Notes: generated by a model not told the origin, from the letters alone. A stretch of 64,000 nt of DNA from an uncultured Phycisphaerales bacterium (GCA_963758525.1 CAVWVQ010000003.1:4160001-4224000); one strand, 5' to 3'. Counted from the first letter of the stretch, positions 45,134 to 57,964 are shown. Made by a program: numbers and translations.

Positions 45134-47324
45134 TTAGGATCGCAGTGTCGTTGTCAAGAAGGATATCACTGCCGTCGCGGTGTCCATCCAGTTGTTCGGA
45201 AAGAATGGACGCCCCGGACGCGGATCGGGCCAGGGCCGCGGCGCGGGGGTGGGCGGCGGGGTTGAGGTGGGAGAGATTGTGAAGTTCACGCCGTTCAGGT
45301 TTGTGTCGCCGGAGGTGATCTGGAGTGGCGAAGGAGCCGCTCCCGCCAGTTGCATGGACTTTGGCATCGATAGAACCACCTGATACATGCCGGTGGCGCT
45401 GGCACCCGGTGTGATGGCTGCGTCGGTATTGCCGCTGCTGAGTTGATTGAAGCTGTAGTTGCCCGATGCGTCGGTGGTAGTTGCGGCAAGCAGGTCACCG
45501 CTTGTGTCTTCAAGATCGACTGTCAGCCCGGGCATTCCGAGCGCCTGGGATCCGAAGCGCCACCTGGAGCGCCCGCCATCGAAACTGTTCCGCTGATGGA
45601 CGCCCTGAAATAGAAGACATCTGACTGCAGGTTGGTGACGTTGGTATTTGCCTCGATCACTTTCGCCAGCGTATTGCCCTGGAAGAAAAAGTTGGCCTCC
45701 TCGGGGGTGGAGTTTTCGTTGAGATAGAAGAAGCGGTCGCCGTCCCGCAGCCGGGTGAACTGATCGACCATGATGGCCTGGAAGAGCGGTCCGACGTCCG
45801 AGCCGCGGACATGATCCTCGGCAAGTCCGCCTTCGAAGGCGTCAATCGTGTTCACGCCGCCGGGATAGGCCGCGGCCAATTGGTTTTGAACGGCGACATT
45901 GCTGGTGATCTGGGCGAAGCTCTTGACGGGCGGCAGCTTCAGCGCCATGCGCAGGGCGTTATAGTTTGGAATCCCGTTATCCCGTCCGCGCTGAACGTCG
46001 CGGGCCATCAAGTCGTCTCCGCCGGCTCCGTTGCCGAAGAGCAGGTTGCGGACGTCGCCGATGGCCATCAGATCCATCGCCTGCGAGTCACCATCGGCGT
46101 CGCCCTTGAGGATCACTCCGATGTCGGTGGAGGTTTGACCTGTCAGAGGGTCGACGACTTTCGCGGGATTGAGAAGGTTGGGATCGAAAAAGTCCTGGGC
46201 GAGGGAGATGCTGTCGCCCGCGGGGTCGGTAATCGAGGACCCGTCATTGTTGTGACGCTCGATTCCGCCGCTGAGCAGGCTGTGACCGAAGCGAAAGGCG
46301 ACGGTGGAGAATTCGTTGGAGATCGTCGGATTGACCGACGGATTGTACCCCCTGTAGGCCGGGAGCGCGTTTCTGCCGAGAACCGCGGGAATCCATTCGT
46401 TGTAAACGATGCTCTGATACTGGGCGATATTGATCTTCCTCGCCTGCTGATACAGCGTGTCGTCAGTCCACTGCGGATGCAGCGCCTGCAGTTGCGTCGC
46501 AATCCGATTGTGGTTGCGCATGAAGAGCGTTTGCAGCGCGGTCAGTTCAATATTCTCATTGGCGCGCCGATCGCCGGCGGCAAACAGCTTGTCGGAAGTG
46601 ACCATTCCCGCGTCGTTGGCCATGTTGAGCGCGGTAAGCTGGTCAGCCGAGAAATAGGTCGAATTGTTGTACGGCAGCATGTTGCCCGGACTGGTTTTCA
46701 ACAATCCCCCCGCTCCGGTGCGCAGGGCTGCGGCTACTGTCTGCGTCGATCCGTAGACATTGGATAGATCGAGATACGAAGTCACCACGGTTGTCTGCTG
46801 CCGTGGATTGGCTTTGCTGGTTCCGGTGGCGGGATCGAATTGCGACCGCGTGAACTCGAGCGGGCCGGGACCGATTGGATCGTTGGCTGCCACAGCGATG
46901 GGAAATGACGCGCCGCCATCCAGCGTCAAATCCAGATCGTGATCCATGAACTGCCCGAAGGCATATCCGAAATCCGAGAGGCTGTTCTGATCGATGGTGG
47001 CGATGTCCGCCGACGGATTTGCCGGATCGGCCTGATTGTTCAGCAGATTGCTGATGGCGCGGCGCTCTGATCACCGGGTAGAGCGGGTGAGCTGACGCCG
47101 TCGCTGTATGCCGCAGCCGCGAGGCGGAGCAGGTCGGTGTTGGCGGTTCCCCAGCTGGGGTTTGCAATGTTATTTCCAACTTCGTCGATCGGCCGAACGC
47201 TCGTCGACATCAACAAGCGCCCCTCAAGCGTCTCGAAAACACACTTCGTCGCACCTCTTATCTTTTGCTCATGCAACCGCTTTTCTGTTAGGCGACCAGC
47301 CCGAAGCCACAAAAACATTTCCAT
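45134..47324 (-). CDS. Secreted heme peroxidase (peroxidase-cyclooxygenase superfamily) with Planctomycete extracellular motif and SdrD-B/Cna-like C-terminal domain; frameshifts ~47062 and ~45540
   Basis: ETLEGRLLMS; GQFMDHD; GDRRANEN; AFRFGHS; RGRDNG; RDGDRF; TTTDASGNYSF. Confidence 0.85.
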
Positions 47325-52476: not shown

Positions 52477-53103
52477 CTAAGGAAGCAGGCGCTCCGCCGG
52501 AATAACGACCGGCTCTCCGGTGACGGTCGCGAGGCTCAATTTCATGCCAGCACTCAGCTTCCGCATTTCGGCGTATCCTCCTGAAGCGGCGTCAGCGGGT
52601 TTCTCATAAACCTCTATCACACGATCGATCAAATTCACGATCGCGTACATCGGAATACCCGCCGTCGCATAGAGCTGCAGCTTGTATCCGCGGTCGCGAG
52701 GCAAAGAAGAATCAGCCACTTCGATGACACAGAGGACATCGGCGGGGCGGGGATGACAGGTTCCGTAATCTTCTATGGTTCCGCGAACGATCGCCGCGTC
52801 CGGCTCCGGCTCGTCGCGGGGCGGAATGCTGATTGGCTGCTGTGATCGAAGGTGACAGCCAAGCGGTTCAAATGCGCTTGTCATCCGCGCGAGTCGGCTG
52901 ACGATCAGGGCGTGTTCGACGCCAACGGTCATGATGTCCTCCCCTTTTTCCGAGCGGATTTTCCTGACAATCTGCCCATCAAGCAGTTCGAAGGGCTCGC
53001 CCTCAGCAATCGACCCGGTGGCAATCATCTCGTGGTACTCATCGACGGTGTGCCGATAAACCAGTTCAGGATGAGCGGCCAACTCTTGGGCGATTGTCGT
53101 CAT
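52477..53103 (-). CDS. Uma2 family endonuclease
   Basis: TVDEYH.M, ELLDG, EPEPD, IEVADSS...DR..K...YA.AGI. Confidence 0.88.
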   Translation of the reverse strand: MTTIAQELAAHPELVYRHTVDEYHEMIATGSIAEGEPFELLDGQIVRKIRSEKGEDIMTVGVEHALIVSRLARMTSAFEPLGCHLRSQQPISIPPRDEPEPDAAIVRGTIEDYGTCHPRPADVLCVIEVADSSLPRDRGYKLQLYATAGIPMYAIVNLIDRVIEVYEKPADAASGGYAEMRKLSAGMKLSLATVTGEPVVIPAERLLP

Positions 53104-53142: not shown

Positions 53143-54426
53143 CTATTGCGCGAAGCGTCTTACAATGATCGAATCATTCTGCCCCCCGAAGCCGAAGCTG
53201 TTGCTGAGCGCGACATCGACTTTGGCTTTGCGGGCTTGATTGGGGACGTAATCGAGATCGCACTCGGGATCGGGGAATTGCAGGTTCATCGTCGGCGGCA
53301 GCACGTTGTCTCGGATCGCGAGGACGCAGCAGATCAATTCGACCGCGCCGGCGGCCGCGATCAAGTGGCCCATCATGCTCTTGATGCTGCTGACGGGGCA
53401 GCTCTTGGCGCGTTCGCCGAAGACGGAGCGGATGGCGATGGTTTCGTTGCCGTCGTTTTCTCGGGTGCCGGTGCCGTGGGCGTTGACGTAGTCGATATCG
53501 GCTGGAGACATCTTCGCATCGCGCAGGGCTTCCTGCATCGCGACGATCGCGCCGCGGCCCTGCGGGTCCTGATCGGTGATGCGATAGGCGTCGGCGGTTG
53601 AGCCGTAGCCGGCGACTTCAGCGAGAATAGTCGCGCCGCGGGCGGTGGCGTGGTCGAGCGTTTCGAGGATGACCATGCCGGCGCCTTCGCCGAGGACGAA
53701 GCCGGCGCGCTGCGCGTCGAACGGTCGGCTGGCGCGGGCTGGTTCGGCGTTGGCAGTCGAGAGGGCGGTGAGACGATTGAAACCGGTGACGCCGAAGGGA
53801 TGGATCATGGAATGGGCGCCGCCGCCGATCATCACCTGGGCGTCGCCGCGGCGGAGGATCGCGGTGGCTTCGCCGATGGCTTGAGTGGAGGCAGCGCAGG
53901 CGGTGAGGCAGTTCATGGCTGGGCCGCGGGCGCCGGTGAGCAGGGCGAGGTGGGAGAGGGGCATGTTGGGCTCCTGCTCCAGCTCGCGCGACACGTTCAT
54001 CAGTTCTCGCGCAGCTCGGCCCATTTGACGGTGTCGAGCGTCGCGGTCTGGGACTGCCAGGCGGCGAGATTCGCGGTGGTGAAGGCGTCGAAATCGAGCG
54101 AGCCTTCGCCGCTGCCGAGATAGATCCCCACTTCATCGAGATCGAGCGTCGCGGCATCGAGCCCGGAGTGTTTCCACGCCTGCGCAGGCAGCCAGCGCGA
54201 ATTGCGTATTGCGACCGCCTGCAGCATGCGGGCCGATGTCGTCCAGATGCTCGGTGAGCTTGAAGTTTTTCACTTCCGCCGAAATCGTCGTGGGAAACGT
54301 CGCGGCATCGAAGAGCGTTGTGCGGGCGATTCCCGATTCGCCGGCCAATAGCCGTTTCCACGTCGACTCGATGGAATGACCCATCGGTGTGATCCAGCCC
54401 ATTCCTGTGATGACGACTCTTTTCAT
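53143..54426 (-). CDS. Beta-ketoacyl-ACP synthase (FabF-like, catalytically intact); frameshifts ~54180 and ~54010
   Basis: RVVITGMG, LTACAAS (Cys), NAHGTGT, KSMMGHL, SNSFGFGGQN. Confidence 0.88.
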
Positions 54427-54435
54427 AATGAAGTC

Positions 54436-54668
54436 TTCCCCCCTCCCCTGATACTCCGGGGAAGGGCTGGGGCGGGGGTTTGGAGAAACCCGAATGACGA
54501 AACCCGAATCCCCGAATCAATTAATCAATTCCGAATGACGAAACCCGAATGACGAAACAAATGCAATCGTGGAGTCCCGCCCCGCTGATCTCATGCATTT
54601 CATTCGTTCATTCGTCATTCGGGTTTGATTATTTGATTCGGGGATTCTGGTTTCGTCATTCGGATTTC
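54436..54668. repeat. Family C palindrome followed by CGAATGACGAA inverted-repeat hairpin
   Basis: ccctcccctgatactccggggaaggg; gaaacccgaatgacgaaa ... tttcgtcattcggatttc. Confidence 0.8.
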
Positions 54669-54673
54669 ACTGC

Positions 54674-55975
54674 TCAGCTGATCATCCTTCGGAAAACCAG
54701 CGAAGCGTTCTGCCCGCCGAGGCTGTAAACGGTGCTGATCGCCACGCCGATCTTGGCCTCGCGCACTTCGGTGCTCACGTTCAGCTTTCGCTGGTCGATC
54801 ACCTTCCGCGTATTCATCGCGGCTGGAATGTTGCCGTGATGCAAAGAGAGGACAGCGGTGGCTGCGTCAACGCCGCAACCGGCGGCGAGCGAGCCGATTT
54901 GCGCCTTGATCGGCGCGAACGGAATTTTCTCAAGCCCGCCGCCAAAAACACGGTCCATCGCCGCAAGCTCGGCTCGGTCGTGAGATGCGATTCCCAAGCC
55001 ATGCGGAACAATCAGGCCCACATCTGACGCAGACACACCAGCCTCTTTGAGGCTTTTGTTGATCGCGTTGGCATAACTCTTTCCCGAAGGGTCCGGCTCG
55101 GTGATCTTGTACGTGTCCTGGCTCGCGCCGAAACCTGCCAACTCTGCGTAAATCTTCGCGCCGCGGGATTTGGCATGCTCAAATTCTTCCAGAATCAATA
55201 AGCCGCCGCCTTCGGCGACGGCGGTTCCCTCGGCGTCGGCGTCGAACGGGCGCACCGCCTCGACGGGCGAATCGTTGTGGGTTTCGTTGAGCCGATGAAG
55301 CAGCGAATGACGGATCAAACTCATCGGCAGCGCCTTGGTTTCCGCGCCGCCGCAGATCGCCAGCTCCGCGTCGCCGCGCCCAATCGTTCGGAACGCCTCG
55401 CCGATCGCGAGATGGCTGCTGGCATCGGCGCAGGTGATGGTGTTGCTCGGTCCCTTCAGCTCGTGAACGATTGTCACGTGACACGAGAGCATGTTGGGCA
55501 AATATTTCAGCAGCCAAAGGGGCGTGAGTTGTGCCATCCCGACGCCGCCCCATTTCGCGAGATCCAGCTTGTTGCCTGCACGGGCGGCGTGCATCGCGGC
55601 GGTCAGCTCGGCGAGATCGACATTGATCAGGCCCGCGCCGATGTTGCAGCCGAAACGTGTCGCGGGAATCGTGGGAGTGTCGGTGTAGGCGCGCGATTGC
55701 AGCCCGGCGTCGCGGAACGCGTCGTCGGCGGCGATCACCGCCAGCTCGATGTCGCGGGCCATCACCTTCGTTGCTTTGCGATAGCTCTTGGGAACGTAGT
55801 CGCTGATTTTGTAAGGCGGGACTTCGCCGCCAATTTGCGAGGCAAAGCCCGACGGGTCGAACGCAACGAGTTTGCGGACACCCATTTGTTTCGCGAGCAG
55901 GTTGTCCCAGAACGCGCGCGTGCCGATCCCGATGGGGGAGATGATGCCGATACCGGTGACGACGACGCGGCGCAT
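54674..55975 (-). CDS. Ketosynthase-like protein lacking catalytic residues (chain-length-factor-like)
   Basis: KS fold, but TITCADASS puts Asp at the catalytic Cys position and KAQIGSL lacks the second His. Confidence 0.8.
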   Translation of the reverse strand: MRRVVVTGIGIISPIGIGTRAFWDNLLAKQMGVRKLVAFDPSGFASQIGGEVPPYKISDYVPKSYRKATKVMARDIELAVIAADDAFRDAGLQSRAYTDTPTIPATRFGCNIGAGLINVDLAELTAAMHAARAGNKLDLAKWGGVGMAQLTPLWLLKYLPNMLSCHVTIVHELKGPSNTITCADASSHLAIGEAFRTIGRGDAELAICGGAETKALPMSLIRHSLLHRLNETHNDSPVEAVRPFDADAEGTAVAEGGGLLILEEFEHAKSRGAKIYAELAGFGASQDTYKITEPDPSGKSYANAINKSLKEAGVSASDVGLIVPHGLGIASHDRAELAAMDRVFGGGLEKIPFAPIKAQIGSLAAGCGVDAATAVLSLHHGNIPAAMNTRKVIDQRKLNVSTEVREAKIGVAISTVYSLGGQNASLVFRRMIS

Positions 55976-56010
55976 GTGCGAATGATAGAACGCGGAAGCC
56001 GGAAGTGAAA

Positions 56011-56493
56011 TCAGATACTGATCTTCCCTTCCAGGCGATACGTTCGCAGCAGTTCGGTGAACTGCTCGGTAAAGACAAAGTTATGCTCGGGAAACTCCAG
56101 TCCCGCGAGGTTCTGATCGATGTGGCTGAACATCAATTCGATATCCGCCACCGCCTCGCCGCCGCAGGTCACCTGCCCGTTGATCGACGCACCCTGCTCG
56201 GAGAGTTGCTCGATCTTCGCTGAGAAAACGATCGTTTCACCCGGCCGGACGAGGCGGTGGAACGTTGCCTTTCCGATCTTGGCGAGAATGACTTTTTCGG
56301 CGAAGTTGCGCGCTTCGCCGACCAGAATTCCCGCGGTCTGGGCCATTCCTTCCACGATCAGGCTGTGCGGAACGATCGGAAACGCGGGATACAAATCGTG
56401 CAGGTGCTCCTCGGCAAGCGTGACGTTCTTCACAGCCGTGGCGGAAACCCGCGGCGTGAACTCAACGAACTTGTCGATCCAGATCCAACGCAT
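56011..56493 (-). CDS. FabZ/FabA-like hotdog dehydratase, catalytic His apparently absent
   Basis: IDK...AVKNVT..E, HDLYPAFPIVPHSLIVEGMAQ, VRPGE. Confidence 0.8.
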   Translation of the reverse strand: MRWIWIDKFVEFTPRVSATAVKNVTLAEEHLHDLYPAFPIVPHSLIVEGMAQTAGILVGEARNFAEKVILAKIGKATFHRLVRPGETIVFSAKIEQLSEQGASINGQVTCGGEAVADIELMFSHIDQNLAGLEFPEHNFVFTEQFTELLRTYRLEGKISI

Positions 56494-56541
56494 CTCAAAC
56501 CCGAGGATGAATCCCGCCCTATGGGGAACTCGAAGCCGTTG

Positions 56542-56958
56542 CTACGCGGCAACGCCCATCTTGGCGGCCATGTAGCGGGTGATCAGGTCGACCGTCATGA
56601 GCGATGATGCTTTGTCGATCTCCGGGTCTTTCTCAAACTCTGTCAAATCGCAGTACGGCATCCGGCGTTTCAGCTCGGCAAGTCCCTCGGCGGTGACTTT
56701 GCCGTTGGTGACGAAGCGGGGGTCGTTCTGCATGGTCTGGAGGTCTTCGGGAAACAGCTCGTTCTTGGGAATCTGAAACGGCTTGGCCGGATCCGTGGTG
56801 AACGCCTTCTCCAGCCGAAACTGAATGTCGAGGTAGTCGATGCTCTCAGCCCCCAGGTCGCCGTTGAGGGTGGCGGTTGGCGTGACTTCCTCTTCATCGA
56901 CGCCCAGCGCGTCCACCAGCACTCCCTGCACCTTTTTGTACACTTCGTCGTAGGTCAT
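56542..56958 (-). CDS. Acyl carrier protein with large internal insertion
   Basis: DLGAESIDYLDI (phosphopantetheine Ser); about 138 aa. Confidence 0.88.
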   Translation of the reverse strand: MTYDEVYKKVQGVLVDALGVDEEEVTPTATLNGDLGAESIDYLDIQFRLEKAFTTDPAKPFQIPKNELFPEDLQTMQNDPRFVTNGKVTAEGLAELKRRMPYCDLTEFEKDPEIDKASSLMTVDLITRYMAAKMGVAA

Positions 56959-57033
56959 GTTCCATTCCCTTGGTAAAGCCATCTCTCATCGACACAACAA
57001 GCGCAGCACCGCCGAATCAGGGGCAAGATTCAC

Positions 57034-57094
57034 GGAGGGCGGGATTCATCCCGCCATCATTCCGCCAACCGCGGCGGGATGAATCCCGCCCTAC
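57034..57094. repeat. REPIN family A (half copy also at 56505-56522)
   Basis: ggagggcgggattcatcccgcc...ggcgggatgaatcccgccctac. Confidence 0.8.
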
Positions 57095-57120
57095 GGGAGA
57101 GTCGTTTCTCCCGCCGACCG

Positions 57121-57621
57121 CTAAGCCGCACCCAGCCCCAGCGGCGTGCTCAGCGAGCTTGGTCGAATCAGCTCCCATCGACGCTGGTTGTGCTCGCAGA
57201 GGCGCCGGTCGATTGTTGCGAGCTGGGGGTTTTTCTCTTCGAGGTTGAACAGCGCCAGCTCGAATCGCATCTGCACGGCCTGTTTCTCTCCGACCGATCC
57301 GATCGCTTTCAATGATGCGCCGGCTTCGGTGGTTTTCAGAAGCTCGACTTCCATCCGAAGGAAGTTTCCCGGCGCGACAAACGTGCCATATTTCACGTTT
57401 CTTGCTTCGCGCAGCACGCAGATGGACTTCGCGAAGCCGGTGCGGTTGTAGAGCAGCCAGCTTCCTGACTGAATCGCCGCTTCCAGCATCAACACCCCAG
57501 GCAGCACCGGAAATGTCGGAAAGTGATCGGCCAGATACTCCTCGGCCAGGCTCACGTATTTGACAGTCACGATGCGCTGATCGCTGATCTGCTCGACTTT
57601 ATCGACAAGATTGAACTTCAC
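57121..57621 (-). CDS. FabZ-like 3-hydroxyacyl-ACP dehydratase
   Basis: FNLVDKV, EYLADHFPTFPVLPGVLMLEA, FVAPG. Confidence 0.85.
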   Translation of the reverse strand: MKFNLVDKVEQISDQRIVTVKYVSLAEEYLADHFPTFPVLPGVLMLEAAIQSGSWLLYNRTGFAKSICVLREARNVKYGTFVAPGNFLRMEVELLKTTEAGASLKAIGSVGEKQAVQMRFELALFNLEEKNPQLATIDRRLCEHNQRRWELIRPSSLSTPLGLGAA

Positions 57622-57964
57622 GCGTCCTTTTCCCGAAGTCCGAAGCGACAACTTGTATCGGTGGCGGGGGAGCATTTCAAGCGGAGGGCTTGGGGTTGGG
57701 GGTTTAGGGCTCGGTGAAAAGACAGGGCAACTTCGGATTTGATTCTGGTTTGTGGTTTCGTCATTCGGGTTTTGGCTTTCGACTCTGCTCGGAGCCGAAG
57801 AGGACCCGAAGAGGCCGGAAGAGGCCACCACCCGAAGAGGCCATTTGACGCCCCCTCACCCCTCCCGTACCATCGACCACCTTCCCGTAGGTTGGAGCGG
57901 ACGGTCAATTTCGCAACTATCGACGGGGGCAAATTTTACGCATCGGCGGAGCGTTTGAACCGGC

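Follow-up and report, generated by a model that had tools for sequence, protein, structure and literature searches.

The stretch analysed here (64,000 nucleotides, hereafter the window; GCA_963758525.1 CAVWVQ010000003.1:4160001-4224000) comes from an uncultured Phycisphaerales bacterium with a 6.47 Mb genome in 6 contigs, 91% complete, whose class we take as Phycisphaerae from the named nearest loci (Tepidisphaeraceae). It carries five co-oriented minus-strand genes in the order DH1-ACP-DH2-KS2-KS1, which encode two dehydratases (DH), a long acyl carrier protein (ACP) and two ketosynthase (KS) subunits (Table 1). An earlier note on this DNA had described the same gene order, and every motif that it named was found. 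The products fall in the FabA/FabZ, PP-binding and ketoacyl-synthase families of Pfam and NCBIfam, all under the NCBIfam equivalog cut-offs for FabZ, AcpP and FabF. Taken together, our results suggest that this module resembles the rhizobial AcpXL very-long-chain system in how it works and probably in origin, yet should be set apart from it as a variant.

Table 1. Genes and spacer of the module, in window coordinates
Feature	Position	Strand	Characteristics
DH1, FabZ-type dehydratase	57121..57621	-	166 aa; His33 and Glu47 intact
Long ACP	56542..56958	-	138 aa (~128 aa in relatives); phosphopantetheine Ser39; insertion of ~50 residues between helix II and the last helices
DH2, FabZ-type dehydratase	56011..56493	-	160 aa; Leu34 in place of His, Glu48 kept
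KS2, degenerate FabF-like subunit	54674..55975	-	433 aa; Asp184 at the catalytic Cys (codon 55424-55426); long cap helix-loop-helix
KS1, FabF-like ketosynthase with Cys-His-His	53143..54426	-	Cys codon 53896-53898; frame broken twice; intact relatives have the long cap
Spacer between KS2 and KS1	54427..54673		short genome-dispersed repeats; no pathway part

The catalytic residues divide the two KS subunits. KS1 homologues keep Cys-His-His in 44/44 cases. In KS2, Asp184 stands in the Cys column of a gapless alignment to FabF 1j3n, as the earlier note had proposed, and Asp or Glu fills this column in 51 of 52 homologues, both His columns being variable. The loss of the second His was also confirmed (Ser362 occupies its place), and His325 is kept. 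We considered Cys182 of KS2 as a shifted nucleophile and rejected it, as it aligns with a Thr two places before the nucleophile and is a Cys in only 29/52 homologues. The earlier note had named two findings that would count against it, a KS2 Cys at the catalytic position and a genome with no other fabF, fabZ or acpP; Cys182 lies off that position, and the other genes are present. Its pairing of an active with a degenerate dehydratase describes the window correctly (His33 in DH1, Leu34 in DH2) but is not general, as only the window and its 10 closest relatives have Leu and His is present in 28 of the 30 DH2s outside this group. Across homologues, DH1 retains both His and Glu in 34/35, and DH2 retains Glu in 41/41 and His in 28/41. 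A conserved dead dehydratase was therefore rejected as a general trait, the His-to-Leu change of DH2 being lineage-specific.

KS1 has no single open frame in the assembly, with breaks near 54183 and 54010 and a TGA at 54133-54135. Frameshifts also occur in 8 of 34 conserved genes tested in the same assembly (9/35 hits, of which one duplicates KS1 in antisense). The genes for BamA, IspG, adenylate kinase and CarA are among those frameshifted, and the KS1 homologues of relatives are single open frames. For these reasons, the breaks in KS1 are most likely sequencing indels or assembly errors, and a true pseudogene is unlikely. The indel rate of the assembly is high, which makes pseudogene calls in this genome unreliable.

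In structure prediction, the pair of KS1 (from the intact relative L027) and the KS2 of the window scored 0.97 against 0.00 for the best control, with contacts agreeing at 98%, a predicted local distance difference test (pLDDT) of 95 and both caps in the interface; the mark used for pair scores is reached by 116/157 solved pairs and 2/215 mismatched ones, and the pass may owe something to likeness to FabF dimers. KS2, a partner without the catalytic Cys-His-His, is a plausible counterpart of the chain-length factor (CLF) of KS/CLF pairs, in line with what the earlier note had suggested. In the ACP model (pLDDT 93.6), the four-helix core is kept, and between helix II and the last helices there is a confidently predicted insertion made up of helices and a short hairpin. 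The best solved ACPs align over 70-84 of the 138 residues, and fold searches with the whole model returned matches to the ACP core only.

The module is widespread. With a long-ACP profile of 66 rows, drawn partly from the searched genomes, and a match set at E <= 1e-30, the long ACP was found, mostly as one copy per genome, in 251/251 genomes of the class of genome G042 (taken to be Planctomycetia) and in 198/201 Phycisphaerae, counts in which related genomes are not independent. An even phylum-wide sample gave 56 of 301 genomes, and a KS2 profile matched 49 of the same 301, a nearly identical set; in the phylum of an Omnitrophota locus the count was 32/81. Such a distribution is that of a housekeeping system passed on vertically. 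Relatives repeat the core order DH1-ACP-DH2-KS2-KS1, often split, and one family (f9) has two degenerate KS2 paralogues, both unlinked. Of 40 relative loci, 12 hold a short-chain dehydrogenase/reductase (SDR) between DH1 and ACP and 4 hold a B12 radical SAM gene there; one tested cluster SDR exceeds the TIGR01830 FabG cut-off. The statement that the cluster lacks a reductase is accordingly right for this genome and wrong for these relatives. The four B12 radical SAM loci are L157, L160, L162 and L165, some of them with downstream alpha/beta hydrolase, GH3-family and methyltransferase genes.

The module also lies apart from core type II fatty acid synthase (FAS), as had been proposed: acpP-fabF is at C3:3591 kb and lpxC-fabZ at C3:251 kb. 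With these other core genes in the genome, and with the equivalog cut-offs not reached, we do not count the five genes as core FAS. Two more KS/ACP clusters, both with an LpxL-family gene close by, lie at C3:3694-3720 kb and C5:16-20 kb.

A genome-wide transposon insertion study by TraDIS in Planctopirus limnophila bears on the function of the module (PMC10632474). Five consecutive genes, Plim_3124 (DH), 3123 (SDR), 3122 (ACP), 3121 (DH) and 3120 (KS), are listed there as essential, Plim_3124 as domain-essential, with insertion indices of 0-0.024 vs 0.11-0.19 for Plim_3125-3129. The lengths implied by these indices (167, 128, 162 and 429 aa, the ACP having 128 and the KS 429) match module order and lengths in locus L331, and Plim_3124-3120 are likely the counterpart of the module. 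All five KS paralogues of P. limnophila are essential in the same study, which, in the text available, reports them with no pathway assigned (PMC10632474). The two Glu-bearing KS2s of family f9 would correspond to Plim_1694, of 430 aa, and Plim_2562, which has 435 aa and lies two tags away from core fabF, to judge by their lengths and positions. A divergent active KS occurs in L329 (genome G420) and L326 (genome G090), and the G420 copy has 439 aa, the length of the fifth essential KS, Plim_3658. Atypical FabB/F paralogues have also been reported in Rhodopirellula (PMC2649909).

These observations bear on the proposal of the earlier note, a highly reducing type II polyketide synthase (PKS) making a polyene or another secondary metabolite. 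A KS with a degenerate KS, two DHs, a dedicated ACP and the lack of an enoyl reductase in the cluster would all suit such a pathway, but in two classes nearly every genome has the ACP, mostly as a single copy, and the matching genes of P. limnophila are essential. The KS1 profile, moreover, scores FabF at 493 bits, the actinorhodin KS at 370 and the ishigamide KS at 290, and further KS clusters lie elsewhere in the genome (C3:3694-3716 kb and C5:16-20 kb). With KS1 nearer to FabF than to the actinorhodin and ishigamide KSs, and with a housekeeping distribution and essential genes, we do not place the module with the aryl-polyene or highly reducing type II PKS systems, and we regard a secondary-metabolite role as very improbable.

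A closer match is found in rhizobia, where the acpXL-fabZXL-fabF2XL-fabF1XL cluster provides lipid A with (omega-1)-hydroxy acids of C26-C34 (PMC11901934, PMC5613085). We compared the module with eight acpXL-type loci. The gene order is alike (ACP, FabZ, degenerate FabF, active FabF), the module having an extra DH upstream; the Cys column holds Glu in 8/8 FabF2XL, as it holds Asp or Glu in 51/52 KS2; and AcpXL shares with the long ACP its helix-II motif and insertion site. The cap segment, a helix-loop-helix that lines the acyl tunnel (bioRxiv 10.64898/2026.05.19.726425), spans 46-54 residues in 50/50 sequences (15 KS1, 19 KS2, 8 FabF1XL and 8 FabF2XL) against 36 in 16/16 core FabF and 36-37 in 9/9 anammox KSs, so that it is ~13 residues longer in the module and the XL enzymes. 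This signature of a long cap with a Glu/Asp partner was derived in the present analysis and is not a published definition. A FabF1XL profile ranks KS1-type sequences top (seven at 360-380 bits), core FabF reaching <=337. Trees were built on 151, 94, 61 and 32 rows, with partial KSs <340 aa left out and near-duplicates thinned. KS1, KS2, FabF1XL and FabF2XL group together, apart from core FabF and anammox KSs, with support of 0.99 (FastTree, 94 rows) and 87 (SH-aLRT, 61 rows). With the cap removed and a mixture model (32 rows), FabF2XL nests among the degenerate KS2s at 92/100, on a long branch. Homology of the module with the rhizobial XL system is likely on these sequence comparisons.

The same data speak to an orthologue of anammox cluster I (amxACP, amxFabZ, amxFabFmut/amxFabF2) that would make a ladderane-related precursor. 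Anammox bacteria belong to the same phylum and have a degenerate KS upstream of the active one, with a demonstrated amxFabF2/amxFabFmut heterodimer (bioRxiv 10.64898/2026.05.19.726425; PDB 9s5h), and B12 radical SAM genes occur in a few module loci; but the anammox KSs form their own branch, with a short cap and Val, Phe or Thr at the Cys column, and three genomes with the cluster I arrangement are not among the long-ACP matches. Given the KS clades, the cap length and the ACP, the module does not fall within anammox cluster I, and we find an orthologue of it hardly credible.

Likeness to the rhizobial system nevertheless stops short of membership. Curated cut-offs are not reached (PRK06508, 28.7/83; PRK06519, 85.5/320; PRK06501, 286.8/629 bits, KS1 fragment only), and neither lpxXL nor adhA2XL was found linked to the module among recurrent or scanned neighbours, which is why we treat it as a variant rather than as a member. 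An LpxL-family gene is present in 101/101 Phycisphaerae, unlinked to the module, and is essential in P. limnophila (PMC10632474). The enzyme of this genome scores 150 bits with PRK08419, 126 with PRK06553 and 98 with TIGR02207, all under cut-off.

We consider it fairly likely, by analogy with rhizobia, that the module is a second type II system that elongates acyl chains on the long ACP to C24-C35 omega/(omega-1)-hydroxy fatty acids of the envelope; lipid A as the acceptor is a more tentative proposal, to which we would give slightly less than an even chance. Such acids are known from planctomycetes: residually bound (omega-1)-OH C26-C32 acids in Telmatocola and Zavarzinella (PMC3327967), (omega-1)-OH C28-C35 acids, some cyclopropyl or dihydroxy, in Lacipirellula (PMC6995999), and C28-C30 (omega-1)-OH acids in Limnoglobus, Fimbriiglobus and Frigoriglobus (PMC7397252, PMC7534041). 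In the first step, the long ACP would receive its phosphopantetheine at Ser39 and a malonyl group from FabD acting in trans; the Omnitrophota modules bring their own AcpS. KS1 would then condense within a KS1:KS2 heterodimer in which KS2, without a nucleophile, closes off the tunnel for the acyl chain; the cap, longer by 13 residues in both subunits, would extend that tunnel. Reduction would fall to FabG, through a cluster copy in many Planctomycetia and here probably through the core enzyme. Dehydration would be shared by DH1 and DH2, probably as a hetero-oligomer. FabZ active sites take their His from one subunit and their Glu from the other; a DH1-DH2 pair would thus have a single complete site, formed by DH1 His33 and DH2 Glu48, in keeping with a DH2 that loses its His and keeps its Glu. 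The enoyl group would be reduced by FabI in trans, and the product would pass to an envelope lipid, possibly lipid A as the foremost candidate, through the conserved LpxL-family enzyme.

Some loci suggest a different fate for the chain. In Omnitrophota (L365-L380), AcpS is present in 13/16 loci, a PF07993 acyl-reductase-like gene follows KS1 in 11/16 and a GT2 gene is nearby in 12/16. A methyltransferase also belongs to these modules, as does an MMPL transporter in some, and the set is a candidate pathway to a long-chain alcohol glycolipid. The long acyl chain made by the module could accordingly go into a different essential lipid of the envelope or membrane (a long-chain alcohol, diol or glycolipid), and the (omega-1)-hydroxy acids would then have a separate origin, for instance a type I Pfa/HglE-like synthase. 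Besides the Omnitrophota genes, the B12 radical SAM, alpha/beta hydrolase, GH3 or methyltransferase genes of some deep-branching loci and the KS-bearing open reading frames (ORFs) of 2,200-2,900 aa in several Planctomycetia agree with this. The tailoring neighbours are not kept across both main classes, however, and the cap signature indicates the XL type; no type I synthase was found among the 14 KS-bearing ORFs of the present genome, none of which exceeds 544 aa, in an assembly that is 91% complete and indel-prone. We hold this explanation to be rather unlikely.

The essentiality and universality of the module would also suit bulk membrane lipids, for example through an oxygen-independent route to monounsaturated C16-C20 acids (such as 18:1w9 and 16:1w5) without FabA/FabB, in which the DH pair isomerises and KS2 paralogues set the double bond. 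The two degenerate KS2 paralogues of f9 and the unusual monounsaturated acids of planctomycetes (PMC3327967, PMC7397252, PMC6995999) fit such a route. It sits poorly with the essential fatty-acid desaturase Plim_3820 of P. limnophila (PMC10632474) and with both DHs, which match FabZ models under cut-off and have no FabA-specific NCBIfam match; C18 chains, furthermore, need neither a longer cap nor a larger ACP. We judge this route quite improbable.

Several observations weigh against very-long-chain hydroxy acids being made by an XL-like module. In family f55 an intact Cys-His-His gene occupies the KS2 position, sister to the dead KS2s, and none of the 15 readable Omnitrophota KS2s (of 16) has Asp or Glu (7 Ser, 3 Cys, 2 Ala, 2 Val and 1 Thr), so Glu at the Cys column may be convergent; the Omnitrophota gene content suggests a different end product there, an alcohol or a glycolipid. 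The AcpXL-profile scores of the long ACPs (median 39.6, range 16-49) overlap those of core ACPs (31-36), scores that one mis-called ORF in the profile (L344) may lower. Once the cap is removed, the joint clade of KS1, KS2, FabF1XL and FabF2XL falls to 78/42, and a separate duplication giving FabF1XL and FabF2XL is not rejected (approximately unbiased test, p-AU 0.445). The missing linkage to lpxXL and adhA2XL belongs here too, as does the LpxL tree, in which the planctomycete enzymes have no supported grouping with LpxXL. Plim_3124-3120 were matched to the module by gene order, COG labels and inferred lengths rather than by sequence, and polar effects within the operon are possible for the essentiality calls. 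In Gemmata obscuriglobus the only such acid is omega-OH C24, and the (omega-1) series is missing (PMC3327967, PMC7397252/PMC7534041). We found no literature on Phycisphaerae lipids and saw none for P. limnophila; likewise, no literature linking the module to a product was found, and term searches of PMC10896814, PMC13159169, PMC13514998 and PMC11129491 turned up no mention of the module.

The active f55 sister and the varied Omnitrophota residues also lead us to infer that the KS2 partner decayed from an active FabF-like enzyme inside this system. The f55 loci (L164, L168-L172) have both KSs intact and a DH2 without the whole His loop, the reverse of the window pattern. In families f95/f96 (L332-L338), KS1 and a dead KS2 are accompanied by a stand-alone Cys-His-His KS (L333, L336, L338), which has the long cap and branches on the side of the KS2s. 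A broader scenario, which we offer as speculation that is unlikely to hold in full, is that Planctomycetia and Phycisphaerae depend on an ancient very-long-chain line homologous to the AcpXL system and older in form, with a 128-aa ACP bearing a folded insertion, a KS2 that is fully active in f55 and some Omnitrophota and dead at the other extreme, and a family in which two different, essential-looking dead KS2s serve as exchangeable chain-length factors on one KS1, the whole supplying membrane-spanning acyl chains of the outer membrane.

The surroundings of the module appear unrelated to its pathway. It is flanked by a Uma2-family gene (52477-53103, just downstream of KS1) and a metallophosphatase; these, together with yidC, mnmE and efp, were rejected as pathway members, as they are not kept beside the module in relatives. 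The intergenic segments 54427-54673, 56960-57120 and 57622-57960 contain dispersed repeats found in 191, 181 and 95 distinct 300-bp genome bins, respectively, and the spacer repeats are like repetitive extragenic palindromic (REP) elements in character. A scan for regulatory signals was uninformative (3 promoter-like sites vs 1.0 +/- 1.2 expected; 9 terminator-like sites vs 5.9 +/- 2.5). Elsewhere in the window, a gene with an animal-type haem peroxidase domain lies at 45523-46947.

If the very-long-chain reading is right, the genes of the module are candidates for making the C24-C35 (omega-1)-hydroxy fatty acids that chemotaxonomic studies have described from planctomycetes, and they offer a reason for the five essential FabF paralogues of P. 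limnophila. Pseudo-enzyme KS subunits would then be essential in primary lipid synthesis, and rhizobial FabF2XL may itself be a chain-length-factor-like partner.

Compared with known systems, the module is closest to the rhizobial AcpXL/FabF1XL/FabF2XL line, and not to the aryl-polyene, highly reducing PKS and anammox ladderane loci that the earlier note had named. The C26-C34 (omega-1)-hydroxy acids of that line fit planctomycete lipids, and it too is apparently essential, in Bradyrhizobium ORS278, where none of the four XL genes could be mutated (PMC11901934/PMC5613085). It differs in its ACP (93 aa, against 128-138 aa in the module) and in having one DH instead of two, and the KS2 of the module is far less diverged from FabF and is sometimes duplicated or unlinked. 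Anammox cluster I likewise combines an active and a dead KS derived from FabF with its own ACP and FabZ, but its ACP has ~90 aa and it is linked to phytoene-dehydrogenase-like and radical SAM genes (bioRxiv 10.64898/2026.05.19.726425). The KS/CLF pairs of type II PKSs (actinorhodin, ishigamide, aryl polyene) resemble the module in joining one catalytic and one non-catalytic thiolase-fold subunit, with a predicted shaping of the tunnel; the module KSs, in contrast, are nearer to FabF than to the PKS KSs, have a housekeeping spread, and were found with no cyclases or conserved tailoring genes. Finally, the mycobacterial FAS-II (AcpM, KasA/KasB, HadAB/HadBC) makes very long envelope fatty acids with an enlarged ACP of its own, two KS genes and paired dehydratases, a set of parts that the module shares. 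There, however, both KasA and KasB have activity, AcpM carries its extension at the C-terminus and not internally, and KasA reaches only 278 bits on the KS1 profile.

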